A stretch of 64,000 nt of DNA from Ostrea edulis (taxonomy: Eukaryota): assembly GCF_947568905.1 (NCBI RefSeq), contig NC_079165.1, positions 59,272,001 through 59,336,000 of the forward strand, written 5' to 3'. Positions 1,733-63,630 of the stretch are shown here, piece by piece. Position numbers and translations under genes: made by a program. The notes beneath the pieces were generated by a model. That model was not told where the DNA came from and ran no database searches. It was given only the letters and a program-made list of their open reading frames with translations. Position 1 is the stretch's first letter, and the number at the start of each line of letters is the position of its first letter.

Positions 1733-2025
1733 AATGAAAGATGAAGATAACGAACAGTGATCAATCTCATAAGCAGTACAAAATAGATAGTTGGGCAAAC
1801 ACTAACCCCTGGACACACCAGAGGTGGGATCAGGTGCCTAGGAGGAGTAAGCATCCCCTGTCGACCGGTCACACCCGCCGTAAGCCCTATATCTTGATCA
1901 GGTAAACGGAGTTATCCGTAGTCAAAATCAGTGTGCCACAAACGGTCTAATAATCGGTATGAAACACGTCAGACAGCATTTGACCCAACGATAGCTTGTA
2001 TTGGCAAACTAGATCGTTATAACGA
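1733..2025 (-). mobile_element. Naiad-type Penelope-like element, 3' end fragment
   Basis: Reverse complement of the RT C-terminal/3'UTR sequence seen at 41647-42396 and 21580-22090. Confidence 0.85.
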
Positions 2026-29612: not shown

Positions 29613-30800
29613 AAGGGCAGATTACTCTAAGCAAAAAACAAACAAACAAAAAACCCAAAACAATATTCCATCTTTCTTTGGGAAAATAATTGTAGTCTCG
29701 GGCTCACCATTATTTTTAATTTCAACAAGAATTACTGTATACGTTTGAGTACCTTGATATTGAGTAAATCTTACAGTTTTTTAAGCTTCTAATCTATTGA
29801 AAAGGTACACATTTTGAAACTGCTTTGACAAACTGTGCACCTGGACAGCATGCGCGAAACACCGGAAATGTTATTGGGGCATCATCAAAGATTCTAAGTT
29901 TGATATATCTCTTACATAGAATTACATCGTGTTGTACCCCTTCACTCTTTCTGTCATTGGAAGGAGGTCGAACATTTCCTATTGCGATGTCAAACGATCA
30001 AACCCAGACAATTTACCACAGGCCAGTGTATGTACTAGATGGCTTGGTAGTTACTGAATGCAGACCCATAAGATGTAAAAATAATAAACTATTTTAGGAT
30101 CAAACAGCAAAATTGGTATTAAGGAAATTAAGTAAACTGCCAATTGAAATTCAATTTACTGAACGATTATCCTACCAGAAAGATTGTAAAAGATTAACTG
30201 TATTTTGCAGGATATTTTTTCGCGTCCGAATGGAGGCGTTTGCGTTATTCAAAATGAGATATGATACACTAGCTTTTAAATGGAAAATGCATCTTATTGA
30301 CAATGTAACCGTACATTGGGCAAATGTTGTAGTTTACACTTTCATCAATTTATGAAATAATTACCCCACTTTTGGCATTTCCTTGTCTTTCGAGAAATAA
30401 AACAGTTAGAACCTCTTTATTTTGATAATAAAGGGTTAAGTACTTGATTCACATTCAGCCGTTTGCCAAAAAGCACCTTAATTTGATTGTATAAATGTGT
30501 CAGGAAATCAAATCAATGATGGCATGCTGTTTTTCATTTATTCACTGAAAGGAATTTATTAGATGTCCTAATTTCGTTTTTAATCGGCCTTATGTTTTAT
30601 TGTACCTCCAGACATGATATTAACTAGCATGTAAAATGTATATACTGACAAAACGCATTTATATGCTTTTAGGAAATCGTGACGTCATCATTAAGGAGAA
30701 CACGGTGGACAAGAGATGTAGGCAATTCGTGTCTAAAATCATCAGCTAGAGAAGCAGCATAAAACATCTTTGGGAACATTGACGAAAGACTATCGGCAAC

Positions 30801-31937
30801 ATGGCAGACACAGAAGAACCATTTTTCTCCAACATGACGCTTCCTTTCCACATCTCTTTTGTGTATCCTATCCCTCAGGCATTCTACCTTAACGGCTTCG
30901 TGTCTCCCATATTAGTATTTTTCACATTGGTGACAAATGCTTTTGTAGTTCTTATTCTACTACGACGACACATGCGCTCACCGACAAACGCGATCTTGGC
31001 TGCCATGGCAATATCCGACACGTTCACTGGGGTTTCTCCGCTTCCTGTCTTCATCCATTTCTTCTCTCTCGAAAACTACCACGACTTTGTCGAATATCAC
31101 TGGTGTTACCTGTACAAGTTTCTTGGCGAGCTTATTCCAACTATATTTCATACAGCCTCGATCTGGCTTACGGTTGCGTTGGCCATTCAGCGGTATATTT
31201 ATATCTGCCATACAGCAACAGCTCGACGATTTTGCACCATTCGAAACGTCGTACTTGCATCGATCATCATTTATGTTTTGGCTATTCTGTCCCAAATCAC
31301 GCGTTTCTTTGATTTTAAATTCATTCCCTTCCCCATACCTGCATTTGAGTCGCCGAATAAAACACTGGTATCGTGTATTGAGCAAATCAATTCGTGGACA
31401 AGTCAAAATGAAGATTTATATTTCAACCTTTACTTTTGGTTCAGGGTAATTTTCATCCACTTCGTCCCATGCACCATTCTTGTGGTGATAAACTCCATAT
31501 TGATTTGGACTCTTCGAACAGCCCAAAGACGAAGAATGCAGCTTTTAAAACAAAACAAGAAAAGTGAGTTGATGAAACTAAAGGATAGCAACTGCACAAC
31601 CCTGATGTTAGTCTCTGTTGTGGGACTCTTTTTGCTTGTCGAGCTACCATTGGGGGTTATCATGATTCTGCATCTCATCCAAAATAACTTTGATCTTGAC
31701 ATCATGTCCATCCAGACATTCAGATTATTAACATTGATTTCCAACACCTTTATTTTGCTGTCCTATCCGCTGAATTTTTTCATTTACTGTGGAATGAGTA
31801 GACAGTTTCGAGAAACGTTCATGAAAATGTTCTCCAAATTGCCCATGCCGACTCACCGAGAATGTTCGCATTACGCATCGGTGCCTACAGAAAACGGTAG
31901 GACCAACGCCGAGACGACCAGGGAAACGATGCTGTAA
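30801..31937 (+). CDS. SPR: Class A GPCR, sex peptide receptor / myoinhibitory peptide (Wamide, allatostatin-B) receptor-like, 378 aa
   Basis: Seven hydrophobic segments; motifs MRSPTNAIL.AMA.SD, HTASIWLTVALAIQRYIYICH, FRVIFIHFVPC, NCTTLML, YPLNFFIYCGMSRQFRETF closely follow Drosophila SPR as recalled; Kozak ggcaacATGG; splice acceptor at 30672. Confidence 0.92.
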   Translation: MADTEEPFFSNMTLPFHISFVYPIPQAFYLNGFVSPILVFFTLVTNAFVVLILLRRHMRSPTNAILAAMAISDTFTGVSPLPVFIHFFSLENYHDFVEYHWCYLYKFLGELIPTIFHTASIWLTVALAIQRYIYICHTATARRFCTIRNVVLASIIIYVLAILSQITRFFDFKFIPFPIPAFESPNKTLVSCIEQINSWTSQNEDLYFNLYFWFRVIFIHFVPCTILVVINSILIWTLRTAQRRRMQLLKQNKKSELMKLKDSNCTTLMLVSVVGLFLLVELPLGVIMILHLIQNNFDLDIMSIQTFRLLTLISNTFILLSYPLNFFIYCGMSRQFRETFMKMFSKLPMPTHRECSHYASVPTENGRTNAETTRETML

Positions 31938-33119: not shown

Positions 33120-33255
33120 AATCCTCAAGTCATCACAATAAATCATCCGATCGGTCACCACAACGAGTCATCCGATCAGTCATCACAACGAATCATCCGA
33201 TCAGTCATCACAACGAATCATCCGATCAGTCATCACAACGAATCATCCGATCAGG
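33120..33255. repeat. 25-bp tandem repeat (ATCATCCGATCAGTCATCACAACGA), 4-5 units
   Basis: Direct reading. Confidence 0.9.
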
Positions 33256-33332
33256 AGCCCCAATTAATAGCTGGTCATCACCACTAATCATACGATAATT
33301 TGTAGGTCAGCAGGTGAACACGACTAATTGTA

Positions 33333-34065
33333 CCATCAGTCACTGGTCACCACAATTAATCGTACCATTAGTCACTGGTCACCACAATTAATCGTACCAT
33401 CAGTCACTGGTCACCACAATTAATCCTACCATCAGTCACTGGTCACCACAATTAATCCTACCATCAGTCACTGGTCACCACAATTAATCGTACCATCAGT
33501 CACTGGTCACCACAATTAATCGTACCATCAGTCACTGGTCACCACAATTAATCCTACCATCAGTCACTGGTCACCACAATTAATCCTACCATCAGTCACT
33601 GATCACCACAATTAATTGTACCGCCAGTCACTGTTCACCACAATTAATCCTACCATCAGTCACTGGTCACCACAATTAATCCTACCATCAGTCACTGGTC
33701 ACTACAATTAATTGTACCATCAATCATTGGTCACTACGATTAATCGTACCGCCAGTCACTGGTCACCACAATTAATCGTACCATCAGCCACTGGTCACCA
33801 CAATTAATCGTACCATCAGTCACTGGTCATTACAATTAATCGTCCCATCAGTCACTGGTCACCACAATTAATCGCACCATTAGTCACCACAATTAATTGT
33901 ACCATCAGTCACTGGTCACCACAATTAATTGTACCATCAGTCACTGGTCACCACAATTAATCGTACCATCAGTCACTGGTCACCACAATTAATCGTCCCA
34001 TCAGTCACTGGTCACCACAATTAATTGTACCGCCAGTCACTGGTCACCACAATTAATTGTACCAT
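33333..34065. repeat. 32-bp minisatellite (CCATCAGTCACTGGTCACCACAATTAATCGTA), about 23 units
   Basis: Period 32 from 33333. Confidence 0.95.
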
Positions 34066-34318
34066 GCTGTCTGACGTGTTTCATACCGATTGTTAAGCCG
34101 TTCTTGGCACACTGATTTTGACTGCGGATAACTCCATTTACCTGATCAGGAAATAGGGCTCACGGCGGGTGTGACTGGTCAACAGGGGGTGATTACTCCT
34201 CCTAGGCACCTGATCCCACCTCTGGTATGTCCAGGGGTCCGTGTTTGCCCAACTATATCTTTTGTATTGCTTATAGGAGTTATGAGATTGATCACTGTTC
34301 GTTATCTTCACCTTGCAT
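34066..34318 (+). mobile_element. Naiad-type 3' fragment abutting the 32-bp minisatellite
   Basis: tgtctgacgtgtttcataccgattg...gttatcttcaccttgcatt. Confidence 0.9.
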
Positions 34319-34576
34319 TAGGATATTTTCCGTAAACGGAAATTAATGTTATTTTGGTTGTGATATAAGAAATTGGCACAATTGGACAACAGCATAATAA
34401 GAATACCACCAAAAACAAATATGGATAAAATCAAAAATAAAAATTAATTTCAGCATTTTATAGATACATTTGGATATATGAATTAATTGTGGATATCAGG
34501 GAAGACATAAAAAAAAAAATACCAGCATAGGAGTTTTTGCCCAAGACAAAATTGTTTTAATATAAATATTTGATTA

Positions 34577-34649: not shown

Positions 34650-36111
34650 TTTAAGAGTAAACTCAGGTGACTTATTGCATCCGTCGTCGTTCGTCGTGCG
34701 TTAACAATTGAACATTTTTAACTTCTTGAAAATATTATTCTAATTTTCAAATTTGGTACGAAGCATCTTTGGGACAAGGGGGACAAACGTTGTAAATTTC
34801 AGAACTCTTGCAGTCATGGGGCCTTAGGAGCGGGGCAAAAACTGAAAATTGACGAATTTTCACAAATTTTCTTTTTTACAACTGCGATACGTGTAAGAAA
34901 TACTAAATGCAAAGTGATGTGGAGCTGGAAGGCCTCTACCAAAATTGTAAATTTCATGATCCCCGGAATAGGGGTTCTGACCTAAGGATGGGGGTATATA
35001 TTGTTTATGTCTAAAACGTTTAAATAACATCTTCTTTAGTGCTATTGATACTATGTTGATACAAAATACATATTTAGAAAGAAAAAGTAGTCCTTTACCA
35101 AAATTGTAAGTTTCATGATCCCAGGGGTAGGGGTTTTGGTAACAAGGACAGACCAAATTGGTTAATTATTTATGCGTGAAAAATAGAAATGTTTTAACTT
35201 CTTGATAACTGCTATTCCAATTCTTTTCAAATTTGGCATGAAGTATCTTTGGGACAATGGGGACATAAGCTGTAAATTGCAGGATTCCTGCTTCCCTAGA
35301 GCATTAGGGGCGGGGCAAAAACTTCCAAAAATTGACCAATTTTCAAAATTCCTCTTCTCTACAACCAAACACGTGTAAGAAAATCTAAATGCATAGTGAT
35401 GTAGAGCCTGTGCAAAAATTGTAAATTTCATGATCCCCGGGGTAGAGGTTCTGACTCCAGGGCGGGGCCAAACTTGGTATATATAATGTATATGTGCAAA
35501 ACATGTAAATAATATCTGCTTTAATTCTATTGATACTCAATTGAAAGTAAATAGATATTCAGAGGGAGTAAAAAGTCCTTTACCAAATTGTAAATTTCAT
35601 TATGGTAGGGGGTAAGGGTTTGGTTTCAGGGTGGAGCCAAACTTATTATAGTGATTATTGTATACATTTATCATTTGAAGGGCTTCTTTAAGATACAGTA
35701 TGAAAACTAAATGCATATTTTGGAAAAGCAGAAAAGAATGTACAGAAAATGGTGAATTTCGCAACCCCAGGGATATCACTTTAGGATGGGTCCAAGTAGT
35801 AATACATACCTATTAACATCTATTATATCATGTAAAGCCTTTCATCAGCCACGGTGGTCTAGAGGTTAGAGCGTTCGACCCGCATGCGGAAGGTCGGGGT
35901 TCGAATCTCGGCCGCGACATACCTAAGTCGTTAAATCAGGTAGTGACATTTCCATTGCCAAACGCTCGGCATCAGGTGTGAATGTCACGGGTTCTCGGAG
36001 ATGACCTTAAAACGGATGTCCCTTGTCACAGTAGGCGTGGTACGTTAAAGAACCCTCACTGCTCAATGGCCGTAAGCGCCGAGCAAAGACCTAAATTTGG
36101 AGCCCTTCACT

Positions 36112-36151
<40 letters not shown>

Positions 36152-36382
36152 AGAGACGTTAAATAAGATAGAATCATTCAATACATTCATCAGTATCAGT
36201 ATCACGTTTGAGGGCATTAAACTTTTAAGAACACATCTTGTTTTATTCTGTTGCTGAATATTACAATTTAGCTTAGATATGATCAGATTAGGAATTTTTT
36301 TCTAGATTTTTAGCCTTTGGGAGTAGTGATACTTTTTAACTAGTACTCAGGTGACCGGTAAGGCCTGTGGATCTCTTGTTTT
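34650..36382 (+). mobile_element. HINE with ~160-bp subunits arranged as a ~476-bp internal duplication, interrupted by a SINE
   Basis: 5' aaactcaggtgac..GTC microsatellite; ttttaacttcttga at ~34717 and ~35193; 3' actcaggtgaccggtaaggcctgtggatctcttgttt; absent from duplication copy 2. Confidence 0.8.
35849..36185 (+). mobile_element. tRNA-headed SINE, full length, with 8-bp TSD
   Basis: A box tggtctagagg and B box gggttcgaatctc; shared body and tail; TTCATCAG at 35841-35848 and 36186-36193. Confidence 0.9.
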
Positions 36383-36499
36383 ATTATACCCAGTGAATAA
36401 AATTCCTCCAAAACCTACGTTTCTATCATGCCAAAATTTGATCAAATAAGGATTTTGCTAAAACCTATGATATAACATGAGAGTGGGCCTACCTTAATT

Positions 36500-36860
36500 A
36501 TTTAAATGTGTGTCAAATCCGAAATGCTATTATAATTGTTACAGGGAACTTCAATCTACCTGGCTGCAATTTGAAAACAAACACACTAAAACAGTACATC
36601 CCACATTGGTAACCTCTACAAACTCCTTAGACATACCAGATGAGAACGGTTTAGTGCAGGAAGCGGCAAAAGAAGAAAATACTTTCGATTTGATTATTTC
36701 TAACAACCCCTCGAAGATAAAAAGAGTGGAAACTATACCAGCTATATCTAATCATCCTATTGTATTTGTGGAAATCAATACTGCTACATTACACAATCCC
36801 CTGAATTATCTCCCTTTGTAAAAAGGCCAACTGGGATATATCAAGAGTGATCAAAAACAA
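36500..36860 (+). pseudogene. CR1-like LINE APE endonuclease remnant
   Basis: GNFNLP...VQEAAKEENTFDLIISNNPSKIKRVETIPAISNHPIVFVEI resembles the C-terminal part of a LINE APE domain. Confidence 0.65.
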
Positions 36861-38789
36861 TAAAAGAAATACCCCCAGTGTGCTTATTAAGTATCACCTG
36901 CTGATTCTTAAATATATTTATTAAAAGTTAATGCTATATAATATATAGCTAGTTTTGACGTAACGAGGAAGTATCAGGAACGCACACATCTACGTATTTA
37001 CGCTTATAAGCAGTATATGACATAAGTCATACCATTTATGTAATTATCATACCATAATAATCATCGACCAATATCAACATATCGCATAACTTCATAAATG
37101 TCACATCATACGGTAACCACCATCTGTTAATTATTTCACAGCTGGACATCTGCAATATTAACAATCCTACATAGTATCATACAAATAGCCATGCCATAAA
37201 CATTAGACAGGGAAATCGAGCCACGCTCGTTGTTATTTGATATTTCAATATACTAAAATTCACAAGCTATACAGAAGAAGAAGTATCTATATCTTAACAA
37301 CAACGTATGCTAGAAACCTTCATGATCTTTGAAAATCAATAGGGGTCATTTCCTAGCCGCGACCAAACTTACTATGAATGTTGACCTTTGGGAAAATGAA
37401 TATCCTGTGTGCATGCTAAAAACCTCTATAGCCTTTGGATAAACTTGTCCTTACCAACCTTCCTATGAAGTTTAATGACCATTGGACAAAAAATCTCTAG
37501 TCATACTATCTACTAACTGATCTATGACGTAAGCAAAACACCAATGCCTTGATGAAACAGTGCAATAAGGGAGCACTTGCTATTCGGACCTTCGTAATGT
37601 TGTGTTCATCTACAGGAGTGGTTGCAGTTCTACACACATTCAGAAGTTGTTAATTTCATGAAAATTCATCATGCAGTGTTAAAAGTATTCTGAATGAATT
37701 TCAGTTTTATTATAAGATACTTTCTTCACGTACAGCTAAGACCATTTAAAAAGGAATTGTGGAACTTTTTTTTACAAGACAATCTTGGAAAATGACACAC
37801 ACACAAGAACACAATTTATATGAAAAGGTAATCAAAAATATTATATTTACAGCAATTAATAAAAACCTGTGGACCTTCATACTATGTACAATACTATATA
37901 TAAAATAATTTACATCCTTGGCAAAGACCTCGGCAATCGTTACATGTGAAACATCCTGTACACAAATTTGAAAAAAAATCAGGAGTAGAGTTCACTACAA
38001 AGTATTTTTAAAGTAAAACTTACATGTATATTTCTTATCAGGAGAAATACGCCAAGGAAGAAGAATGGTATATCAATATTGATTGCAAACACGGTTTCAA
38101 ATTTTTCTCTGAAGGTGAAGGTGAAGAAATGAGAAGTCGTTCAACTATTCTTAGAAGTAGATGGGATAGCGTCAAAAGCGGCAGTGAAGCAGTTCTGTAA
38201 TTTCTGGATCTGAAAGTGATTGCACTTGCTATAATTTAATCAACTTCGGATACATGTATTTCCTTTGTACTTACCCCCCCCCCCCCCTTCCAACGGGTAC
38301 AACCTTTATAATTTGCAATTGTCCCTGCTTTCTATTTCCCCGTACTCCGGCCTCTTCAGACATTGTTTGATCCTAGCAAATGGAGGTATCAGTTAACTCG
38401 AAAGACCATATCAACGGGGAGGAGAATTTCATGTATATGTGGTCACTTTCATGGGAACCTGAGCATCGCCCATTTTTACCATTTATTACTATTATAATGT
38501 ACAATTATAATGAAAGAGGTCGCAAATACAATATATTTCGTTAGATTTCAATTGATTTCCTTTGGATAGGTTTCGTATCGATTTCGTTTTGCATTTTACA
38601 GGTACCATATGAAATTGAGATAAAAATTATGCATGTAGCCATATGAGAAACTATCTGGGAAAAGGCATATAAGAAAATGGTTGGACGTTGGAATATGGAA
38701 AAGGGATTGATGATATAGAGTCAAAGATTTGACTATCAACATCTCGATGCACATTATTACACAAAGCACATTATTACACAAAGGACTTT

Positions 38790-39135: not shown

Positions 39136-40897
39136 CACATAGGTCATGAGAGCGCACTACGTTCCTACCTACATCAATCTTCATCCTATGGCGGGCACAG
39201 TATTATAGGATATCATTTCTCCTGTAAGATGAGGATTACAAAAAAGACTGTATTTGATACAGAAAATTTGACACCCCCTCCGATCAAGAAAGGTAAGAGG
39301 ATTGTGGGCCTGAAAAGTGACATGGGTATCACACAAAGATAAACTTAAATTACAAGTCTTGCATATTGATCACATGCATTCCAATATTTCTTTGACGTTT
39401 TCAACCAGTGGCCTTGACCTTGTCTTTTGTTCAGAATCAGGGACACAATGTTTGGTCGACGTAAGGACTCTTTCCGTCAAATATTAGCTTTTATTAACTC
39501 TACATAACAAAGTTGTGACCCCCGACAATTTTTGTGATAGTTAGTGGCTTTAGAATTGGACAGTTGTCCAAAGTTTCAGATAAGGACGAATTATTTGATC
39601 ATATTAAACAATTTTCTAGTTCAGTGCTTCTTCGAGCTGTTACAAAGTTGCCAAATACTTCCAATGTTTTTATTGGTGACTTTGGCAAAATGGCCTGGAT
39701 TCTAGATCATGACACCCTATCTTGTCACAAACAAGTTAATCAAAATTAGATCACTTATAGTTCAGAAAGTTAGTGTAGCGGCTAGACCAGCGAATTTAAT
39801 ATCTAATTTTGATTAGATTGGTTCATAAGTGACTTATGTGCCAAGTGTGAGCTAGATGTTCTAGAGGAAAGCGTTTTTACCAACCACAAAAGATGCTACT
39901 CAACAATTTATGTGAAATTGTTTTTGGGAGTTTCGAAGAAGTTCTAATATGCATAAGTTTGCGATGGACAACGGACGACGTACCCGGCGCATTGGCACAC
40001 ATAACATGAGGTTACAACGTACCTGGTAATCCAGAGGACTTTAGAGAATATATATAAGCCAACCATTTTCAGTATAAGATTTCATTTCTGACGTGTTTGA
40101 TCTAGGATTAATTATCCTATGAAAATATTGAGATTATTATCCAATTAGAATATATTCTCCAAACGGAAAATAATGTGATTTTGGTAGAAGAAGATTGTGA
40201 TTTTGATATCATGATCTAATTCGTAAATACTAAACCAACATAAATAATTCATGAAATAAATAACACATTATTACAGACCATAAGCACAGGGTTCAACACA
40301 ACATTGGTGGGTTCGGTTTTGTTGGAACGCGGTTTTTTTAATGGAAATCCTGAAAGGGAGTATTTTATCAAATATTTCTCTTAATTTAACAAATATCTGG
40401 AAAACAATGTATACACTGATTGTTGGGTAGTGTATTGATGCTACTCAATGACAAAAATTATCCGCCAATCGGGGTTTTTTTCTCATGAAAAAATCAAGGT
40501 GTTGATGTTGATGTTGTTAGCAGGTTCCGCAATTTTTAAATGACATCTAGCCACGTAAAACTGTTAACACGTACTTGATAAACGATTTATGAGGTCATCA
40601 TTCTCTTTAACACTATGTTGGGCGTGGTTTCGGTTCCCAGTTGACTAGGTGTTTCGACGCCTTTAAATTCTAGCTTGCGACCGCCAAATGAAAGGTGAAG
40701 ATAACGAACAGTGGTCAATCTCATAACTCCTATAAGCAATACAAAATAGAGTTGGGCAAACACGGACCCCTGGGCATATCAGAGGAGGGATCAGGTGCCT
40801 AGGAGGAGTAAGCATTCCCTGTCGACCCGTCACACCCGCCGTTAGCCCTATATCCTGATCAGGTAAACGGAGTCAAAATCAGTTTGCCAAGAACGGT

Positions 40898-41646
40898 CTA
40901 ACAATCGGTATGAAACACGTCAGACAGATTTTGACCCAATGGTAGGTTGTATTGACGAAGTAGATCGTTATAACGACCATAGAATTTGCGAAATGCTGAC
41001 TTCAAATAAGACTGTTGAAACCCCTGTACCATCAACTTGTTTGTCAGTAGCTTACCTCGAATTAAAAACTGACTATATCCAGAACAAGCTCTTGCATATC
41101 GAATCAGTTGAGAGATATAAACACCATATGCAGGTGATAATAGAATATTGCTACATAGATATGGGAAGTTGACGATGGAGAAGCTGAAATCATCCCGTTT
41201 ATCATACGGTTGAGTTGTCAGTTTGCCTTTAATGTCTACTTTCAATAAAATATCTAAGTATGAAGCAGAAGTGGACGACTCTGTGGTGTCTTTTATTTCG
41301 ATTTCACAGGGATAAATCGAATCGACATATGAATGAAATTTATTATTGTTAATAGACAAAACGTCGTCGATATATCTAAATGTCGAATTGAAGGCCACAG
41401 CAAAATATTTTTTCTTCTCACGTAGAAGTTTTTGAATAAATTCTGCTTCATATGAATATAGAAACAGGTCAACTAACAAAGGAGCACAATTCGTGCCCAT
41501 GGGAATTCCAACAGACTGTTGGAAGACCTGATCACCAAAGACCACGAAGATATTGTCAATGAGGAACTCTAGCATATCTTTTATTTCAACTTCAGAGTAC
41601 TTGTACGTGGAATCACAGTGGTATTTCACAAAGTAAGTTTTTGGAT
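40898..41646 (-). pseudogene. Naiad reverse transcriptase, C-terminal half
   Basis: FQQSVGIPMGTNCAPLLVDLFLYSYE, FRYIDDV, SYLDILL, thumb region to stop at 40898. Confidence 0.9.
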
Positions 41647-42396
41647 ACGTGAGAAGAAAAAATCTCTCGCTGTGACCTTCAACTCGACTTTTAGATATAT
41701 CGATGACGTTTTGTTTATTAACAATGATAGCTTTCATTCATATGTCGATTTGATATATCCCTGTGAGCTCGAAATAATGGACACCACAGAGTCGTCCACT
41801 TCTGCTTCATACTTAGATATTTTATTGAAAGTAGACATTAACGGCAAACTGACAACTCAACTGTATGACAAACGGGATGATTTCAGCTTCTCCATCGTCA
41901 ACTTCCCATATTTGTGAAGCAGTATTCCATTATCACCTGCATATGGTGTTTATATATTTCAACTGATTCGATATGCAAGAGCTTGTTCTGGATATAGTCA
42001 GTTTTTAATTCGAGGTAAGCTACTGACAAACAAGTTGATGGTACAGGGATTTCAACAGTCTCGATTGAAGTCAGCATTTCGCAAATTCTATGGTCGTTAT
42101 AACGATCTAGTTCGTCAATACGACCTCGCATTGGGTCAAAATCTGTCTGACGTGTTTCATACCGATTGTTAAGCCGTTCCTGGCACACTGATTTTTACTG
42201 CGGATAACTCCGTTTACCTGTTCAGGATATAGGGCTCGTGGCGGGTGTGGCCGGTCGATGGGGCATGCTTACTCCTCCTAGGCACCTGATCCCACCTCTG
42301 GTGTGTCCAGTGGTCCGTGTTTGCCCTACTCTCTATTTTGTATTGCTTGTAGGAGTTATGAGATTGATCACTGTTCGTTATCTTCAGCTTGCATTT
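41647..42396 (+). mobile_element. Inverted 3' segment of the same Naiad family inside the element
   Basis: REKKKSLAVTFNSTFRYIDD...VFHTDC plus full 3'UTR on the + strand. Confidence 0.9.
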
Positions 42397-43228
42397 AATT
42401 AACACCACTTCTGGCATATGTAGTTACACTGTAAGTTTGAAGTTTCTCCTTCACAGCTGTTAATATTTTCTTGAGGAGCAAAGATAGGGGCTTGGTAGAG
42501 CACTTACTGGATCCAGCAATGTATCTTTGTTTGTAAGGGTTTTTATGAAGTTTAGTAATCCATTATGGTACCTGGGATATTAACTGTGTCTAAATCTGAA
42601 GCATGGTTTTGAAGAATTTCATCTTTTGAAAGGGCAGTTGGAGTATAAGTACGATTACCAAAAGTGGAATCAATGCCAAGTTCGTTTAAAATACAGTTGT
42701 AATAATGAGACTCAGAAATAATGACAATGTTGTTACTAGCTTTGTCAGCTGGAACCAAAACATATTCCTCATGTAACCTATATAATTCTTTTATCACTTC
42801 TGGTTTTCTAAACACAGAAGGATAGATGGTATGTACTTTAATTTTAATATATTTAATGCGGAAATTTTAATATTCCTCATATGCTTTTAACCCATTCTGA
42901 CAATGTATCTTTTTCATATTTAGCCCATCGTGTGGCATAATCTTTGACAGAATTCATAATAGAGATGAAGTTTTGTTGCCAATTAAAATACCGAGGTTCT
43001 CTGTATTTAGGACCTTTTAGAATAAGTGATTTGAGGTCCTCATTTTCAACTATATATGTATATCAACATCACCAGTAATGACATGTCCAGCTCGACTATA
43101 GTTGAAAGATGAAAAACAAGAACACGTTGGTGGATTACGTATAAGATGGTCTATATCTAGGCACTGTAAAGTTTGTTTATAATTACAAAGTTTGGATGCA
43201 ATAGTAGAAGTATAGCTGTAGGAAATAC

Positions 43229-43784
43229 TCGGGCTTGCAAGATCAGCCTTCAGTGCACTAAACAAGATCAGGAAGTCATCTAAATTCAAAACTGATACTA
43301 AACTGCGCCTCTTCAACACCATTGTAATATATGTCCTCCTGTACTGTGCAGAGTTATGGCAAACATCTAAAAAAAAAAAAAGATGAGGAAATATTAGATA
43401 CCTTCCATCGCAAATGCCTTCGTAGAATACTCAACACCTGCTGACCAGAGAAGATCTCAAATGATGATCTCTATAGACAGACAAATACCATACCATTGTC
43501 AATCAGCATCAAAGTCCGTAGATGGAGATGGATTGGCCATGTTCTGCGAAGGAACAACAACAGAAATATAAAGATTGCACTAACATGGACGCCAAAAGTG
43601 AAGAGGAGAACTGGAAGACCAAGGAATACCTAGCGAAGGACAGTTGAAAGCGAAAGGAACAATCTCAAATGGACCACTTGGCAGAGAGCTGAAGTCGTGG
43701 TAGCAGACAGGTCAAGATGGCGAGGGATGTTGGCCGGCCTCAAGAGTCCATAGGGCCCAGAGATGATACGTATGTATGTATGTA
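43229..43784 (+). mobile_element. 5'-truncated RTE-clade LINE inserted in the Naiad linker
   Basis: Decayed C-terminus ARSAFSAL..., FHRKCLRRIL, RRWRWIGHVLRR, GRPRNT; (GTAT)n tail; 12-bp TSD TGTAGGAAATAC at 43217-43228 and 43785-43796. Confidence 0.9.
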
Positions 43785-44059
43785 TGTAGGAAATACAGGG
43801 TGTAGACTTGAACTTGAAATAAGTTGAAATACACGCGTACGACTGAACCCATTTATGACGAAGAATGTTGCTTATGTTGGCGGCATCTATTCCTTTGTTT
43901 GTAAAGTTGAGCTTTAGGAACTGACGGCATGATTTGGAAGGAATATCATCCATAACCCATGCTGGTTTAAAGAGCCTGTGATAGGCAATATCCATAATCA
44001 TAAAGTTCAGTCTATATTCAGCTGTTGAAAAATCCAAGTATAGACTTGCTGTAGCTTCT

Positions 44060-44938
44060 TCAAATAACGTATGTAAAATTCTCAATGAAACAGTAAAGTT
44101 TTGTACGAATATGATGTGGACCTAATTGTCTGTTGACGTAAGACAAAAGTGAATCAAACGTGACATCATTTATACTTGGTCTTTTATCTGAACGATGTCC
44201 ATGACTGCGTTTCCGTCTTTGAGTATTGGGAAAGAGTCCCATCACATTCACGTTATTTCCTTGTGGACTAGTCAAATTTCCCACATCATATACATTATCA
44301 TTGCATCCATATGGAAATGCAGTGCCTAGGGTCCTGATCCAGTGATCTTCTCGTGCATGTCTACGAAAAGGGGTGCTTAATGTTGGATTGTTTGTGTGAT
44401 GGTAATTTCCCCCCAAAATTCTTACCTTCATGGACAAGATGGAGTGGTCCGGTACATTAAAATGCTTGTAAAGAAGTTGGTCACCACCATTATTTATTTG
44501 AAATCTGTGCCCCAATATTCTTTTATTAAATGACCCCTTGGTTTCTCCCACATAAATTAAGCCACACAGGTTACACTCAATGGCGTAGACAATGTTAGAA
44601 GATTTACAAGTCAAATTATCAAACGTTTTGGTACAGAAACTACGTCCAGTGAGATTACTACTAAATGAATTTCTAGTGATCAGTATATCACAAGTTTTGC
44701 AATTTTTTGCAGAACATTTTGAGATTGAGCACATGGGATATGAAAAGAAATTATCAAAAATATCTCTTATAAAACATAACAGTCTTTGATTTGGGTATAC
44801 GAAGTTTGGTTTCTGTACCAAAGCAGACAATCTGACGATTGTACATAAGACAAATCTTTGATATCTCGAAGGATAATCCGAGGGACACCAACCGATCTGG
44901 AGTAGCCTCTGTTCCTTATAGACTCCACAGAGTGACAC
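44060..44938 (-). pseudogene. Naiad GIY-YIG endonuclease domain
   Basis: CxxxxCxxC, NIVYAIECNLCGLIYVGET, GHR...YKHF (CCHH), EDHWIRTLGTAFPYGCND. Confidence 0.9.
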
Positions 44939-45679
44939 CTTTTTATACTGGGCGACGTGTCAGCCAGTATTGTTTCGTTATTGTGTATATTCACGAAGGA
45001 ACATATATCGAGCGACAAGTATCCTCCAACCACCACCAACAACAAATATAATTCTTTCAATAATAACAAAACCACTACCAACCAAAACAATAACAAATAC
45101 TGTGATCGTAATAAATCTTTTTTTGAAAATTATACAACAGAACAAGTAGAAGACGAAGTAGAACATTAAAATACTTATAAGGTACAGATAATCTTTTGTG
45201 ATCATAGCTGGACCACAGAAGAAGAAGAAAAATGAGGAGGAGAGGAGAAGGAATTAACAAACAGGGCCAGTTTGTATGTAAATGGTGTTTCCAAATAGTT
45301 TCAGCAAGGGGGCGACAATTTGGGGTGTGAGGTTATGCCCAAATCACTGCCACCGACGATTTGGGACGGGCGACGATTTGGAGTGTGACATGTGTCACAA
45401 AAGGTTTGTTTGCCTTTTGTAGAAAGTATGCCTTGAGAGTCTTACTGTACTGTAGAGGAATGTGTATGATTCTTCGATGTAGCGGACTTAGACGTGTATG
45501 ACGTTTCTAAGGTCATACTTTGTTCTTGGCAAAGCTTAGAAGCCTCTGAATTGACACTTTTCGAAGACATAACAGTTCTTATCTGACAAACGTGTTCACG
45601 ACACCTAACTATTAGTGGTTCTGATGTGAGATTGGGAATTTGAACTTTCTTCCACTCACTATGGACTTTCTCGGGAATG

Positions 45680-45962: not shown

Positions 45963-48900
45963 CCGGTGTTATAGAGCCAGACATCCCCCATAGTGAGACT
46001 TCCCCCCGGAAGTCTGGCTCTAGAGTGAGCCTTCCCCCAGGGGGGAAGGCTCACTCTAGAGCCAGATTTCCCCCCAGAGCCAGCCTTCCCCCCGCGGATG
46101 TCTGGCTCTAGAGTGAGCCTTCCCCCTACGGAAATCTGGCTCTAGAGTGAGCCTTCTCCCCGGTATTCTCGCTCTAGAGTGAGCCTCCCCCCAGCAGACT
46201 TGCTATAGAATAAACCTTACCTCAGGGGGAAGACTCACTCTAGAGCCATAACACCCTCTTGAAGTCTCGCTCTAGAGGGACACCCCCGCTTTCATCCCCT
46301 CCTATGCAAACTACATCTGTATGGAATAAATTTGAGTTTATCGGGCAGGGAATTACTTACCTACCTACCTCTCTACCTACCTACCTACTTTTTAAAAAAA
46401 TGTTTTATTTTTGTATTTTCAACACATTTATACATACAAACATTCAAACTGTAATCTACACTCGCTCATTCACACTTGCAATTACTCTGTGCACCTTCTG
46501 TATCAATAATAACAGTGAATTGTATATATGATATATACATGTATAATATATACATACACACACAGAAATATATATACATATATAAACATACATATATACA
46601 CATTCAAAGATAAAGGTAATTATTTTATTTTTCATATAAATGTATTATGATTTTCAACAAACTACTTGTCCATTATATTATCATACAATGCCCATTTACC
46701 AAGCATTTTGGATTTGCTATGAAATACATTTTGACAATATATTTCTAAATTTCTATAGCATTGAAACAAATTATTTGCATCTGAGAATTTGGGTTTTGAG
46801 CCCTGTGATCTGGAATAATAAATGTGCTTTTTGTGCTAACAAAAGAAGAAACATTTCCAAACAACTTCCATCAATATTGCCAAGTAACACACTTCTTTTT
46901 GTGATTTTATAACCTTTGACAAATGCATTGTACCATTTCACAAAATCTCCCCAGAAGGCAGACACACAGTCATAAAAAAAATATAAGTGACTGTTTCTCT
47001 TTCACTTTTGCAAAATGAACACAAGTCATTATCTACAAGTTTAAGTTTGCGAAGGAAAAAGTTTGTAGCTATATAACACATAAGAATTGAAGATAAATTA
47101 AATTTGTTTCTTTTGTGCATAATGATGCGTTCATATAATGAAATTCCCAACATTTTTCTGAAATAGTTTCACTGAGATAAGTTTCCCACTTCTCTCTTTT
47201 GAGTTGTGGGGCTATGAACTCCTTTTCCTTCAAAACCTGATATAAAAATTTAACATAAGAACTAGAGTTCATTTTCTGTACAATACACTGATTTGGACTC
47301 AACAATCCATGATGTACTTTGCATTGTTTTTAACAATTTGTCTTTTAATTTCAATCCCAAGGTGTAATAACTTGCATTCCCAAAGAAGAAAAAGATAGAC
47401 GCTATATAAAAAATTGGCGACCAATATCATTATTAAATGTTGATTACAAAATTGGTTTTAGTGCCATGGCAAATCGTTTAAAGACAGTACTAAGAAGTAT
47501 CATAAGTGACTCTCAGAAGGGTTTTTTAAAGGGACAGTTTATTGGTGAAAACACTCTTTTTTTGGTATGATTTGACCAAAATTAGCCAGGACTGTTATTA
47601 TTATTAGATTTTGAAAAAGCATTTGATTCATTGGAATGGGATCTTATTGTAAAGGCACTCAGGTCCTTCAATTTTGGGGAATCTATTGTAAAATGGTTTC
47701 TAAACCCTCTATACACCTCTAATACCAGTTGTATAATTAACAATGGAAACTTGTATAAATTCTTCTGTCTTGTAGACAAGGAGATCCATTGACACCATAT
47801 ATCTTTATTATTACAGTAGAATTGTTGGCAAAAGCTCTTAAAGAAAATTGAAATATTAAAGGCGTAACTGTGGCTGGAAAAGAAAACAAATTAGGCCAGT
47901 ATGCGGACGACTCTTTATTAACGTTAGATGGCAGTGAAAAATCACTTAGAGAATCTATGAGAGTTATTGATATGTTTAGAATGATTTCTGGACTACGTTT
48001 AACTATTTCAAAATCACAAGCAATTTGGTTGGGGAGCAAATCAGGTTCAGCGGAAACTTTGTGTAATGATCTGAAAATGAAATGGAGAAATAGCAATTTT
48101 AAGCTCCTCGGAATAGTATTTACAAAAAATCTGGAAGACATGACTTTATGTAATTATCAATCTAAAATCAATGCCATTAAAAATTGCTAGGTTTTAATTC
48201 CAATAGGTAAAATCACAATTATCAAAACTCTAGCACTCCCAAAGCTCATACACTTATTTTCAGCATTGCCTGGAAGAGTTGAATAAAATATGTTTTTAAT
48301 TCATTTGGGGATACAAGGTAGAAAAGTTGAAAAGAAATACAATTGTGGGTAATTATGATGAAGGGAGACTAAATATTGACCGTTTGGCATCTTTTATAGG
48401 TTATATTAAACTGAAATGGGTCAAAAGGTACCTTGCTGATAATGAGGGTATATGGCAACATATGTTGCATAGTATTTTAAATCTTAGAAATGTGGATTTC
48501 ATTTTTCACCTATTCAAAGAAAAACTTAATGAATTTGTAAATCATATTGACAATGTGTTTTGGAAAGATGTGTTTAAAGCTCAATTAAGAGTTAAAAAAA
48601 GCTCTCTTTCTGCTACAGATTATTTGAATTTAGATATAAGAAACTTAGTTAATATTGAAAAATGGAATTTTAATACAAATTGGGTTGACAGAGGCATTAA
48701 GACCTTGAATGACTTAGTTTTGCAGAATGAAACATTCAAATACTTTACTGATGAAAAAGATGCGGTTGGTACAAAGAACTTTTTGAGCTATTATTGTCTT
48801 ATTTCAAAAGTACCCTACCTACCAATTTACCTACCTCTCTACCTGAAGTTATACAAGTTTAAAAGCATAACCGATATTTGTACGCAGATGAGAAGAAACA

Positions 48901-49390
48901 TAAATTCGAAATTTCCTCATTTCATTTTTCAAACTTCTAAAACTAACCAAGGCATAGGTATTGTGTGGGTCAAAGTTCAAGGTCTATGGGTCAAACAAAA
49001 TGGCTTATCAATTCCAATGTGTTTTATTCAACGTATTCTTCTCTTGAGTTTGATGAACGACTTAAGCAAAATCATTTAATGCCCTGCTGAAAATGGTCTT
49101 GGTATCTAAACAATCTCTATAAACTGATATTAGTTTACCAAGAATAAATGGAGGGGGAAGTCCTGCTATGGGGGGAAGTCTGACTCTACAACTAGTGATA
49201 GAGTAGGTATACCCACGGGGAAGTCTGGTTCTAGAGTGAGACTTCCCCGGGTGTTCTCCTGCTCTAGAGTGAGCCTCCCCCCAAGGGGAAGGCTCACTCT
49301 AGAGCCAGGCTTCCGGGAGAAGGCTCACTCTAGAGCCAGGCTTCCGGGGGGGAGTCTCATTATGGGGGAAGGCTCACTCTACAACACCGG
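45963..49390. mobile_element. Non-autonomous foldback-like DNA element with modular subterminal repeats
   Basis: Inverted ends CCGGTGTTRTAGAG; arms of GAAGGCTCACTCTAGAGCCAG-type modules at 45963-46280 and 49150-49390; about 1 kb once the LINE is removed; TSD unclear (TA / AA). Confidence 0.8.
46389..48814 (-). mobile_element. 5'-truncated, 5'-inverted L1/Tx1-clade LINE
   Basis: + strand 47361-48814: RT (GVITCIPK..NWRPISLLNVDYK, DFEKAFDS, QGDPL, YADD); - strand 47363-46389: C-terminal Cys-rich region, 3'UTR, AATAAA and short A tail; in a (CCTA)n tract. Confidence 0.9.
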
Positions 49391-49879
49391 AAGAACAGAT
49401 TGTTAAATCATATGGACTAAAATCAACCTCGTAGGACGCCGGATTTACACATGCTTGCTTGTAACAACTCCCAAACAGCTAAGGAGGAATCATTTACGGT
49501 AGATCCACTCTCATGTGACTTATCAATATTAATGGCTCAAGGTAGAAAAACTGTATGTATTGATTTCCACTCAATATATAGTTTAATCTAATCCAAAGAA
49601 AGTGTTTTTACTCTTTTAAACATGTCGGACATATATACACGGAAGAATAAATTGACATAAGAAATTGGCACAATTGGACAACAGGATAATAAAAATACCA
49701 CCAAAAAATTGATAAAATCAAAAATAAAAATTAATTTTAATATTTTGAAAAAAACTGCAATTTTATACATACCTTTTTCTTTTGTATGAATTAATTGTGG
49801 ATATCAGGGAAATCATTGTATAACAGACATATAAAATACTATCATAGAAGTTATTGCCCTTGACAACATTGTCTACATG

Positions 49880-50935
49880 AAAAGAGAAGATAGCGAACAG
49901 TGATAAATCTCATAACTTATATAAGCAATACAAAATAGGAAGTTTGCCAAGCACGGATCCCTGGGCACATCAGAGGTGGGACAAGGTGCATAAGAGGATT
50001 AAGCATCCCCTGTCGACCCGTCACATCCGCCGTGAGCCTAGATCTTGATCAGGTAAACGGAGTTATCCGTAGTCAAAATCAGAGTGCCAAGAACGGCCTA
50101 ACAATCGGTATGAAACATGTCACTTCAGACAGCATTTGACCCAATGATAGGTTGTATTGGCAAACTAGATCGTTTTAACGACCATAGAATTTGCGAAATG
50201 CTGACTTTAAACGAGACTGTTGACACCCCTGCACCATCAACTTGTTTGTCAGTAACCTTTCTCGATTTAAAAACTGACCATACGCAGAACAAGCTTTTGC
50301 TTATCGAATCAGTTGAGAGATATAAACACCATATGCAGGTGATATTAGAATATTGCTACATGGATATGGGAAGTTAACGATGGAGAAACTGAAATCATCC
50401 CGTTTGTCATGAAGTTGAGTTGTTAGTTTTCTGTTAATGTCTACTTTCAATAAAATATCTAAGTATGAAGCAGAAGTGGACGACTCTGTGGTGTCTTTTA
50501 TTTCGATTTCACAGGGATATATCGAATCGACATATGAATGAAAATGTTTGTTAATAGATAATACGTCGTCGATATATCTGAAAGTCCAATTGAAGGCCAC
50601 AGCAAAATATTTTTTCTTTTCACGTAGAAGTTTTTTTTAATAAATTCTGCTTCATAAGAGTATAGAAACAGGCCAGCTAACAAAGAAACACAATTTGTGC
50701 CCATGGGAATTCCAGCAGACTGTTGGAAGACCTGATCACCAAAGACTGAAGATATTGTCAATGAGGAACTCTAGCATATTTTTTATTTTCAACTTCAGAG
50801 TACATGTGCGTGAAATCAGAGTGGTGTTTAACAAAGTAATTTTTTGGATGACTGATCACTAGATATGAATATTTCCGTTTTCCATTTTTGTTGAAGAAGC
50901 AATTGTCTATGATGTCAAAAATATAAGTCTTTGAT
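49880..50935 (-). mobile_element. Naiad-type 5'-truncated copy (RT C-half plus 3'UTR), frameshifted
   Basis: DIIDNCFFNKNGKRKYSYLVISHPK..., GIPMG, RYIDD; absent from duplication copy 1. Confidence 0.9.
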
Positions 50936-58794: not shown

Positions 58795-59810
58795 ATGGAA
58801 CATGTCCGACAGCATTTGACCTAAGATCATTTTAACAACTCAACTATAGAATTTGCAAAGTACTGACTTTAAAGGAAACAAGAGGTACTGTGAGCAATGC
58901 TCACTAAGAATACCCCCCGCTTACCCCAATCTCCCAAAGGGTGTTGGTAATAGGTATAAACTACCTCTTTTCTGAGTGTAAAAAACAAATGGCATGACAA
59001 ACCGAACCATATTGCTACTTCGATGTCCAGTGAGTGTGACCTTTGACCTTTTGACCCCAAAATCGATAGGGAACATCTTCATCCCATGGGTAGTCCATAT
59101 GTATGATATGGTGACGGTAGGTGGAAAGGATAACGCTTTAGAGCCCGGAAACCATATTGCTACTTCGATGTCCAGTGCGCTTGACCTTTGACCTTTTGAC
59201 CCCAAAATCAATAGGGAACATCTTCATCCCATGGGTAGTCCATATATATGATATGGTGACGGTAGGTGGAAAGGATAACGCTTTAGAGCCCGGAAACCAT
59301 ATTGCTACTTCGATGTCCAGTGCGCTTGACCTTTGACCTTTTAACCCCAAAATCGATAGGGAACATCTTCATCCCATGGGTAGTCCATATATATGATATG
59401 GTGACGGTAGGTGGAAAGGATAATGCTTTAGAGCCCGGAAACCATTGTGTCTACAGACGGACGGACGGACGGACATACGGACAACCCGATTCCAGTATAC
59501 CCCCCCACAACTTGTTGCGGGGGGTATAACTATTGAAACCCCTGTACCATCAACTTAATTGTCAGTATCCTGCCTCGGTATATAAATTAATCTATAGGCA
59601 GAACATGCTCTTGAGTATCAAATAGGTTTTGAGACATAAACACCATGCAGGTGAAAATGGAATATTGCTACATGAATATGGAAAGTTAACGATGAAGAAG
59701 CTGAATTCATCCTATTTGTCATATAGTGGTGTGGTTAATTTGCCATTAACATCTATGATCAATAAAATATTAAAATAGGAAGCAGATAAATGTACATATA
59801 TGTTCCTAAA
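58795..59810 (-). mobile_element. Diverged Naiad fragment split by the HINE at 58877-59529
   Basis: gacagcatttgacc...gactttaaagga|actattgaaacccctgtacc rejoins the family sequence. Confidence 0.7.
58877..59529 (-). mobile_element. Complete HINE with three 145-bp central repeats
   Basis: Minus strand: ttatacccccgcaacaag..., GTCC microsatellite, repeats at 59007/59152/59297/59442, 3' palindrome gtgagcattgctcac and cctcttgtt; inserted at TT. Confidence 0.92.
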
Positions 59811-61039
59811 TTGGATGTTTGGGAATAAAAATATTTCTGTTTTATGAAAAACTGAAGATAATTAAGAAAACAAAAAGTGAGGATCTCACAAATACTAAAA
59901 AGAATACAAAATTCAAAGTACAGCGAACATGTACCCCTAGCCACATCAGAGGTGGGTGCCTAGGAGATAAATAAAGATTTCATTGTGATTTTCAGTAATG
60001 TGTGAAAAAATTCAAAGTAGTTAATCAAATGATCTTATATGTCATGTGTAAAGTTTTCACTGAAATGGTCTAATATCCATCCATTTCTACTTTCAAGTAT
60101 CCAAGAAGTCACCTGTGTTCGATAAATCAATGAGTAGTCGAGTACTGACTATCACTCGATCATTGACCCAATATTTCATAGTCAAGTTTTTGTTAAAAAT
60201 TCAAAACACTTCTTGTGATTAAAAATCATGTATGGGTAAAGTCAAACTTGTTTAATTCATGCATATGTAAATAAATCATATCTCCGAAATCCACTGTTTG
60301 GACATACTTGAAAAGATCTCGTGATGGAAATATGGTGAAATGCACATTACGTGAAACTGAACTTGTATGCTATTGAGGGACAATAAACATATAGTACATC
60401 GTAAATGTGGACATACATTGGAAAGACCTTATAAATAGGTTTGTTTCTTTTTATGCCTAAGTGCATTTTAATAGTACAACATTTCATTATCAAAATAAAA
60501 ATTACCGCTTATCTACTTCTCTGTCACGAGTCAGGGATTCAGTTGGAACTAAGCCATAGGTGATAGATTAATTATGGGTATATTGTATTACGTGGCTTCG
60601 TGAAAAGTCACACTCTCAAAGTTGAGTTAATTTCCTTGAAGAAAAAATGCACAGGGCTCCCCTAAATTTTCTCAGAAACAGCATGCCCTAGTTTATTTCG
60701 CATAAAAGATATAATGAAATGAAATGAAAAGTCATAAACATAAATAACAATTTAAAATGATTTCTGTCTTATATTGATGTACTGTTGATGTACTTTTCAT
60801 GCTAGCGTACTTGAATACAAATTAACCCAAGCTTGTCTGTTGTAATATTGTATTACATTGTTCTACCTATGTTTAATTAATACAAAGTCTTTAATTCAGT
60901 TGAACAAATTTCTAAACGGCTATCCAGATAAACATTCTTTCATCCTGTGAACCTGGCTATTCATGTGAGCTGAGGTGAGACTGATGACTTAGGTACACTT
61001 GTACCCTGTTATTTTGTTGTTTATTTCTTTTTATCGAGT

Positions 61040-63370: not shown

Positions 63371-63630
63371 GTCTAGTTTTTTTATGATGATACCACTATC
63401 CTATATTGTGAATTCATTAATTCTTTTGGGAATAAAATTTTGTGGTGTTGCTGACAAATACAATTTTATTGGTATGTCAAATCATTAAAAAGCACATCCC
63501 CTACTTTCCACTTACACAAATATCATGATTTTATAATTGTCTAGCTACAGAATAAAAACAAGAAAATTGGTGTTCAATGAATAAATTAAAACTACATTTG
63601 TAAATCACCACAAAATCATTATCAACTTGC

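Follow-up and report, generated by a model that had tools for sequence, protein, structure and literature searches.

Structure of the element between 45026 and 40687

The window (the whole 64,000-nucleotide stretch analysed) contains, on the minus strand from 45026 to 40687, a Penelope-like element in which a zinc-finger GIY-YIG endonuclease (EN) is followed, 5' to 3', by a KR block, a CxC linker, the GxKY and DKA motifs and a Penelope-type reverse transcriptase (RT). A first-pass annotation had proposed this reversed order (EN, CxC linker, RT), and all the motifs it named were found in that order. Eight pieces of the element were collinear with one protein of 1018 aa (P0073) at 67-86% identity, EN through RT motif 2 forming a single collinear piece, and the best homology match (E=2e-119) was far beyond chance. 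The suggested HMM search recovered GIY-YIG (E=4.3e-4) and RVT_1 (E=5.6e-4), but both Pfam matches were weak and below the curated cut-off. All features are listed in Table 1.

Table 1. Features of the Naiad locus and other copies of the family in the window
Feature	Positions	Strand	Basis or remark
5' copy of 9-bp target-site duplication, probable	45027..45035	-	7/9 match to 40686-40678
Naiad ORF, N-terminal region	44717..45026	-	tblastn with P0001 aa 5-88, 75%
GIY-YIG endonuclease: Cx4CxxC finger, CCHH motif, R/H/E/N residues	44297..44716	-	82% to P0073 aa 90-314
KR-rich block (44218-44198) and EN-to-linker region	43785..44296	-	motif scan and P0073 alignment; frameshift near 44095
Insertion 1: LINE-like 3' end, 5'-truncated, (TATG)n tail, antisense to element	43229..43784	+	flanking exact 12-bp duplication
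CxC linker, GxKY, DKA, RT motifs 1-2	42396..43216	-	tblastn with P0073 aa 411-701, 79-86%
Insertion 2: antisense 5'-truncated copy of same Naiad family, RT motif C to end and 3' UTR	41646..42395	+	8.0% from main arm
RT C-terminal half (main arm): distal insertion-in-fingers region, motif B, YIDD, thumb	40898..41645	-	82% to P0073 aa 765-1018; RVT_1 E=5.6e-4
3' UTR ending in CATT	40687..40897	-	10-nt deletion vs sister copies; resembles Naiad_Sglo 3' end by eye
3' copy of 9-bp target-site duplication, probable	40678..40686	-	match to 45027..45035
5'-truncated copy, ~aa 748 to 3' end	49877..50920	-	frameshifts and stops; most of insertion-in-fingers region
5'-truncated copy	21578..22087	+	
5'-truncated copy, mostly 3' UTR	34064..34319	+	
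5'-truncated copy	1733..2025	-	duplication-like flank 10/12 (2039-2028 and 1733-1722)
Older copy, two pieces	16972..17620	-	~21% diverged
Older copy	58824..59966	-	~20% diverged; interrupted by tandem array

Judged by eye against the Naiad_CGi and Naiad_Sglo DNA, the element becomes recognisable at 45026, a point ~10 codons past the ORF start in the published oyster consensus, and its N-terminal region has one frameshift, near 44770. Within the EN, a Cx4CxxC finger of the CX2-5CxxC type (44716-44690) stands upstream of the GIY-YIG core with its CxxC (44614-44540), and the conserved R/H, H, E and N residues follow at 44524-44297; the CCHH motif and the catalytic residues span 44614-44297. All the conserved Cys residues are encoded by TGT or TGC, and the EN ORF has no TGA in frame.

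The CxC linker (43133-43068) reads PPTCSC from 43133 and GHVITGD at 43088-43068, and is followed by GPKY at 43014 (the GxKY/GxKF/Y motif) and by DKA, not DKG, at 42746, where the DKA+8 codon is TCT. The piece with these motifs carries three frameshifts and two stops, and 13 codons are gone near 42570. The C-terminal half of the RT retains motif B (41509) and YIDD (41374), and its main arm consists of 248 open codons, free of frameshifts and stops, up to the stop codon at 40900-40898. Between the two halves, 68 RT codons (702-769 in P0073 numbering) have been lost at insertion 2.

The element is a nearly full-length dead copy of a kind of retroelement common in oysters, and thus ordinary genomic debris: 5 frameshifts and 2 stops are found in the 5' piece, two insertions interrupt the copy and the ORF is broken. 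The lesion counts (7 in the 2060 nt of the 5' piece vs 0 in the 744 nt of the main 3' arm) give only a hint of an age difference, which is not significant (p=0.12). An intact Naiad element would carry EN, linker and RT in a single ORF of ~1020 codons. The first-pass annotation expected this ORF to be largely rebuilt with the help of the 50-kb copy; 46 codons with the catalytic motif A, the 13 near 42570 and ~10 at the N-terminus are absent from the window. Searches by tblastn with codons 702-747, including motif A, reached at best E=0.31 anywhere in the 64 kb, and the 50-kb copy supplies only ~748-769 (~22 of the 68 lost codons), so that a full local rebuild is not possible; as this copy is 9.3% diverged (89/952 sites), a patchwork ORF would be a chimera, not a consensus. 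The predicted insertion in fingers is supported by the relatives, in which the distance from motif A to motif B has a median of 87 aa (46/68 N-terminal-EN relatives scored) vs 59 (100/123 canonical ones scored), an indirect comparison because motif A is deleted here, and by the 50-kb copy, which extends ~68 codons upstream of motif B in alignment with P0073, short of motif A.

Interruptions, element ends and other copies

Both insertions recognised earlier are present. Insertion 1, a 556-bp fragment within the linker, has an identical 12-mer on either side (43785-43796 and 43217-43228), a duplication whose sequence is found nowhere else in the window. Pfam searches with two pieces of it gave no match; by its translated C-terminal motifs, it is a putative RTE-clade LINE. 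Insertion 2, previously seen as an insertion only, turned out to duplicate the 3' end of the element itself in antisense: it measures 750 bp, carries one stop and stands in place of codons 702-769, with ~205 nt of the target missing. It differs from the main arm at 59/737 sites, plus a 10-nt indel. Short overlaps occur at both inner junctions, and the terminal CAT of insertion 2 overlaps a target ATG (3 nt certain, up to 5, CAT(TT)).

The outer 9-bp duplication, spotted by eye, is not a perfect one, with its 5' copy in a TGG-rich, low-complexity flank; both mismatches are CG/TG transitions, and the chance of such a match is 0.0011 in the exact register or 0.016 with 2 nt of slack on both sides. 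No remainder of an older RT was found beyond 40687. Past the 3' ends of seven copies, the flanking DNA had neither a shared extension nor (TA)n (by eye), and the 3' UTR gave no more signal of conserved RNA structure than shuffles did (z=0.66). Rfam searches matched no family, including hammerhead and SECIS; the hammerhead core pattern was found in 0/8 pieces on the sense strand and matched once in antisense, in the 22-kb copy.

The family occupies 7 loci and 6742 bp (10.5%) of the window, nearly all as 5'-truncated copies with a common 3' end. Against 1525 bp for a SINE-like family, this makes it a candidate for the dominant retroelement of the region, as judged from the window. The young copies are 8.2-13.3% apart, and the two arms, at 8.0%, are slightly closer to each other than to most. 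At six other copies, a target duplication was represented by one junction-adjacent candidate and one non-adjacent 7-mer, with none at the remaining four. The search for pseudo-LTRs found none upstream, at the EN side of this copy; in the 59-kb copy only, a 3' UTR piece (59966-59864) lies upstream of RT pieces (59786-59529 and 58879-58824), forming a partial, pseudo-LTR-like tandem.

Relationship to known Penelope-like elements

By sequence comparison, the element is a Naiad, a sister family within the known clade of oyster Naiads. In the RT trees (rows without Chlamys, TERT or a named Poseidon; outgroup assigned from domain order; a quick method for the second tree), the RT grouped inside the N-terminal-EN clade (100/100 and 100), and both trees separated the window sequences from canonical elements with full support. 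Both RT halves were nearest to P0073, then to P0089; In each tree the window rows had P0073 as their sister, with support of 100/99 for the linker-to-motif 2 piece. The anchor P0089, compared by eye, shares ~94% identity with Naiad_Olur (22 differing positions out of ~385), and no placement of the RT outside Naiad was seen. Of the annotation's Naiad/Chlamys designation, the Naiad part is supported. The presence of both zinc-finger motifs in the EN marks a Naiad and not Chlamys (PMC8557442), which shares the N-terminal EN, CxC and insertion in fingers, whereas its EN lacks CCHH and CX2-5CxxC.

The oyster Naiads (Naiad_CGi, which is Repbase Penelope-2_CGi, Naiad_Sglo and Naiad_Olur; PMC8557442) resemble the element in the N-terminal GIY-YIG with Cx4CxxC and CCHH, the KR block, CxC, GxKY and DKA, and also in the long A-to-B distance in relatives, a similar 3' UTR, heavy 5' truncation, an inverted 3' copy, and the absence of a hammerhead and of a (TA)n target. 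They are listed without insertion preference, and a 30-40 bp tail and a (TA)n target are optional in Naiads. The element here differs in being dead, in having no upstream pseudo-LTR and in the position of the inverted arm (inside the RT vs at the 5' end). It is assigned to a sister family because none of the three oyster consensus sequences compared is identical to it, the EN core being ~79% identical to that of Naiad_CGi (46 differences in ~215 positions, by eye). The nearest full-length relative is P0073 (cluster of 44 members), an intact EN-CxC-RT ORF matching all pieces; its ~18% divergence implies a related family or another species.

The selenoprotein Naiads (Naiad_Scon, Naiad_Mmer, Naiad_Sdum and Naiad_Smim) share the architecture but have an in-frame UGA at a conserved Cys and a SECIS; this identity was ruled out by the Cys codons, the EN ORF free of TGA and the Rfam result given above. 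The canonical C-terminal-EN elements (P0059, P0061-P0063 and relatives) have an EN with both fingers and a related RT, but differ in the reverse domain order, DKG, the A-to-B distance (59 vs 87) and a separate clade. DKA was found in 60/68 N-terminal-EN relatives and DKG in 111/123 canonical ones. Among the relatives found with the EN, the EN precedes the RT in 50/63 and follows it in 4/63 (9/63 unscored); among those found with the RT, the numbers are 6/150 and 0/150, with no detectable EN in 144/150. None of the traits of Penelope/Poseidon, Neptune, Nematis or Hydra (C-terminal EN, DKG/DKT, hammerhead) was found in the element.

In three database clusters outside the window (P0057, P0058 and P0389), a Naiad-type RT is fused at the C-terminal side to a ubiquitin-specific protease (USP deubiquitinase) domain whose Cys and His boxes are intact; this fusion may be an undescribed variant.

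Proposed history of the locus

The structure probably arose from one Naiad insertion, followed by two later insertions and decay; we infer the single origin and the order of events as follows. The GIY-YIG domain would have nicked the chromosome and the RT, starting at the 3' terminus, would have copied the RNA of the element (target-primed reverse transcription), a nick-and-prime mechanism known from other Penelope-like elements (PMC8557442, PMC11167929). The cDNA would have halted ~10 codons before the ATG, and repair would have left the 9-bp duplication. The copy would then have died: the LINE 3' fragment would have entered the linker, a second, 5'-truncated Naiad cDNA would have entered the RT in antisense with the loss of target, and frameshifts and stops would have built up.

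A single original insertion is favoured because the degraded 9-bp duplication frames the whole unit and the pieces are collinear; it is also supported by the common nearest relatives of both RT halves, and by the 12-bp duplication and repeat tail of insertion 1. Further support comes from the duplication-like flank (10/12) of a second copy, the lack of an older RT remainder beyond 40687 and the 5' truncation with a common 3' end at nearly all seven loci. Against it, the outer duplication is imperfect, only 1/6 other copies has a junction-adjacent duplication, the lesion counts hint at different ages of the 5' piece and the main arm, and the two arms are slightly closer to each other than to most other copies. 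The DNA tree of eight copies was unresolved (0 starred branches), and arms as sisters were not rejected (p-AU 0.35). For gene conversion between the arms, a run test on 16 informative sites gave p=0.39, and the longest run of identity, 90 nt, gave p=0.019.

That 90-nt run, together with 6 informative sites that the arms have in common vs two other copies, fits an unlikely alternative which nevertheless keeps some weight: 40687-42395 would be a later head-to-head unit (an inverted and a direct 5'-truncated copy) within an older full-length copy whose 3' part was deleted. Such a layout is common for Naiads (PMC8557442) and agrees with the undamaged frame of the main arm, but it needs the loss of the old copy's last 1.2 kb and a chance start 68 codons past the break, and the outer duplication frames the whole unit. 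The main arm has instead 9-11 informative sites in common with the 50-kb copy, and the arms are sisters in 26% of bootstrap trees only.

Alternatively, template switching or double priming during one act of retrotransposition would have produced the whole inverted and deleted structure. Both strands are nicked and extended by a purified Penelope-like protein, which often targets AT-rich DNA in its own sequence (PMC11167929), and the duplication around everything and the short overlaps at the inner junctions would suit such an event; it is nonetheless improbable, as the variants shared by the arms tie each to different window copies, a pattern hard to obtain from one template. That the inverted arm is an artefact of assembling a repetitive region is highly improbable: such structures do trouble assemblies, per Craig et al. 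(PMC8557442), but the divergence of the arms is far above read-level fold-back. An origin of EN and RT from two tandem canonical C-terminal-EN Penelope/Neptune elements, named in the annotation as a finding that would overturn its reading, is ruled out by full-length relatives such as P0073: Penelope-like elements do form partial tandems (PMC8557442) and the EN matches 4 canonical elements among 63 (E 3e-16 to 8e-12), but EN-first relatives occur in single ORFs, DKA is typical of the N-terminal-EN group, the RT is followed by a stop and UTR and by no further EN, the window sequences stand apart from canonical elements in both trees, and EN through RT motif 2 is collinear here.

The pre-insertion site of the nested copy can be inferred, because its target was a conserved ORF. 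Tentatively, and with a rather low likelihood, this antisense copy may record a Naiad integrating into the coding sequence of its own RT. It is one data point on how inverted Penelope-like structures form. Should the pattern recur genome-wide, which is more than a single case can show, Naiads would use short 3' homology for priming, target themselves and form their inverted structures through secondary insertion with deletion. With this locus the oyster Naiads gain a sister family, and pieces of this kind are best masked ahead of gene prediction.

Domain order and placement of the Naiad copy

The Penelope-like element at 40687-45026 (minus strand) is a dead copy, unable to encode an active protein; its family is closely related to the oyster Naiads already published. 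The Naiad domain order proposed for it in the first-pass annotation is borne out by the translated motifs: from N- to C-terminus, the minus strand encodes a Cx4CxxC finger, a GIY-YIG core with CxxC, conserved R/H/E/N residues and a KR block on the endonuclease (EN) side, then the CxC linker, GPKY, DKA and reverse transcriptase (RT) motifs 1-2. Past an interruption, the RT resumes at motif B and continues through YIDD and the thumb to a stop. Pfam E-values were 4.3e-4 (GIY-YIG) and 5.6e-4 (RVT_1), both matches falling below the cut-off. A search with the EN ORF against longer proteins gave 63 matches (top E=2e-119), and the nearest full-length relative (database protein P0073, 1018 aa) was collinear with the window (67-86% identity per piece).

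PMC8557442 (Craig et al., 2021), in its available parts, defines Naiads by an EN that lies at the N-terminus and bears both zinc-finger motifs, together with CxC, DKA and an insertion in the fingers, and describes them as having no canonical hammerhead. The window copy shows every one of these features, the insertion in the fingers being indicated indirectly. The distance from motif A to B was 87 aa in relatives with N-terminal EN (46/68 scored) and 59 in canonical elements, with C-terminal EN (100/123 scored). Comparison by eye with published proteins (accessible supplement of PMC8557442) covered their N-terminal side: the EN core differed from Naiad_CGi at 46 of ~215 positions (~79% identity), and P0089, a database anchor, differed from Naiad_Olur at 22 of ~385. 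These relatives suggest an oyster-like bivalve as the host.

Two RT trees, the second by a quick method, were built from 29 N-terminal-EN and 20 C-terminal-EN relatives, minus five per tree for which the motif cut was unsuccessful; neither tree had rows for Chlamys, TERT or any named Poseidon element. The RT phylogeny called for earlier placed the window RT pieces within the N-terminal-EN group (support 100/100 and 100), with both 3' arms and the 5' RT piece sister to P0073 and then P0089. A derivation of EN and RT from two tandem canonical elements was rejected, since the trees give this placement and relatives of scorable order are mostly EN-first: EN preceded RT motif 1 in 50 of the 63 EN-search matches (4 after, 9 unscorable) and in 6 of the best 150 RT-search matches (0 after; 144 with none detectable, mostly short fragments).

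Rfam gave no matches window-wide at the gathering threshold, nor any with E<=1 within 40500-45500. The hammerhead core was absent from the sense strand of eight pieces, folding of the 3' UTR showed no gain over shuffles (z=0.66), and the EN ORF had no in-frame TGA.

Structure and history of the copy

The 5' edge (45026) lies, by eye, ~10 codons inside the ORF of the oyster consensus, and no pseudo-LTR was found upstream of it in the window. The 5' piece (EN through RT motif 2, to 42396) carries two stops and five frameshifts; the main arm (RT C-terminal half and 3' UTR, 41645-40687) has 248 open codons. Insertion 1 gave no Pfam matches, and its 12-bp duplication is confined, within the window, to its two flanking sites; judging from its motifs, it may belong to the RTE clade. 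Insertion 2, the inverted arm, is 8.0% diverged from the main arm (59/737) and sits where P0073 codons 702-769 are absent. At its junction the element's terminal CAT overlaps the target ATG, a lone 3-nt overlap that is thin evidence. The suggestion that part of the RT gap could be filled from the 5'-truncated copy at 49877-50920 (minus strand) held for P0073 codons ~748-769 only; the motif A stretch is absent from the window (best match no better than E=0.31).

A single original Naiad insertion, hit afterwards by a second Naiad cDNA, is probably the history of the locus, because the 9-mers outside the 5' edge and after the 3' end match at 7/9 positions, the pieces are collinear and there is no leftover RT beyond 40687. 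Both 9-mer mismatches are CG/TG transitions, and the chance of such a match is 0.0011 in exact register or 0.016 if each side is allowed 2 nt of slack, for a pair first noticed by eye beside a low-complexity 5' flank. Only one of six other copies has a comparable, duplication-like flank (10/12 match). Counting against one original insertion, the main arm is lesion-free (lesion contrast p=0.12), and the two arms as sisters were not rejected (p-AU 0.35; grouped together in 26% of bootstraps). Informative sites were mixed, 6 linking the two arms and 9-11 linking the main arm with the 49877-50920 copy. Although the arms are otherwise 8% apart, a 90-nt run (41111-41022) is identical to its counterpart in the inverted arm (p=0.019); local gene conversion is possible there, and a run test on informative sites was unsupportive (p=0.39).

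The Naiad family and its surroundings

In a targeted tally, the family occupied seven loci and 6742 bp (10.5%) of the window, and the SINE-like repeat 1525 bp. Two copies are ~20% diverged and the rest 5-14%, a split that suggests two or more amplification waves. The 3' ends of two Naiad copies (34319 and 49877) each adjoin a copy of one AT-rich repeat of ~200 bp. The minisatellite array at 33129-34065 runs up to where the 34-kb Naiad fragment has its 5' edge, and one GC-rich array sits ~1 kb upstream of the Naiad copy. The GPCR ORF is the sole clear host gene noticed.

Features of the window
Feature	Coordinates	Orientation	Remarks
Insertion 1	43229-43784	antisense to Naiad	LINE-like 3' end, (TATG)n tail, exact 12-bp duplication
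Insertion 2	41646-42395	antisense to Naiad (+)	750-nt copy of the element's 3' end
Old Naiad copy	58824-59966		pseudo-LTR-like layout, a 3' UTR piece lying upstream of an RT piece; interrupted by a 145-bp tandem array
145-bp tandem array, also at	4780-5369		
AT-rich repeat beside Naiad 3' ends	34361-34555, 49653-49872	opposite relative orientation	74% identical
Tandem minisatellite arrays	870-1353, 28840-29612, 33129-34065, 62045-63373		
(TCAA)n-tailed repeat, ~270 bp, dispersed	4010-4131, 4516-4773, 9567-9828, 10352-10572, 13348-13618, 14994-15209, 36011-36185		seven pieces, 79-93% identical; putative bivalve SINE
Decayed element, LINE-like translated fragments	36385-38145, 50994-54004		copies 83-85% identical
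GC-rich short direct/inverted repeat arrays	45963-46276, 49219-49390		one family; possibly MITE remnants
7TM GPCR ORF	30783-31937	+	intact, single frame, ~378 aa from first Met; 7TM_GPCR_Srw E=9e-30, 7tm_1 E=3e-22
Open frame, 259 aa	48300-49079	+	no significant Pfam match; our impression is of a LINE RT, C-terminal part
Open frame, 192 aa	57886-58464	-	no match in Pfam search

Protease-bearing relatives and presumed mechanism

Outside the window, in database proteins P0057 (1303 aa) and P0058 (1297 aa), a Naiad-like EN-CxC-RT order is followed by a C-terminal UCH/USP domain (PF00443, E=9e-31 and 1e-33), and P0389 has RT and UCH (E=2e-28); unlike these, the window's family has no ubiquitin-specific protease (USP) domain. 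Their clusters hold 2, 14 and 2 members, respectively. By pattern check, 7/8 proteins keep both the Cys and the His box intact, and P0389 has the His box with a variant Cys box. P0057 and P0058 are 49% identical and both fall inside the N-terminal-EN group in the tree. The 53 Naiad ORFs in the accessible supplement of PMC8557442 are all <=1070 characters, too short for a USP domain; in the available main text 'ubiquitin' is absent, and one Chlamys type is described with a Josephin-like protease motif. No report of a Naiad RT-USP fusion was found in the literature searched, most subscription papers lying outside its reach.

In the accessible parts of PMC11167929, an anole Poseidon element in vitro nicked and extended both strands at AT-rich sites, and started at RNA sites without homology to the target. 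By analogy, the Naiad copy's element would work as other EN-bearing Penelope-like elements do, its GIY-YIG domain nicking the target and target-primed reverse transcription following (PMC8557442, PMC11167929, available parts).
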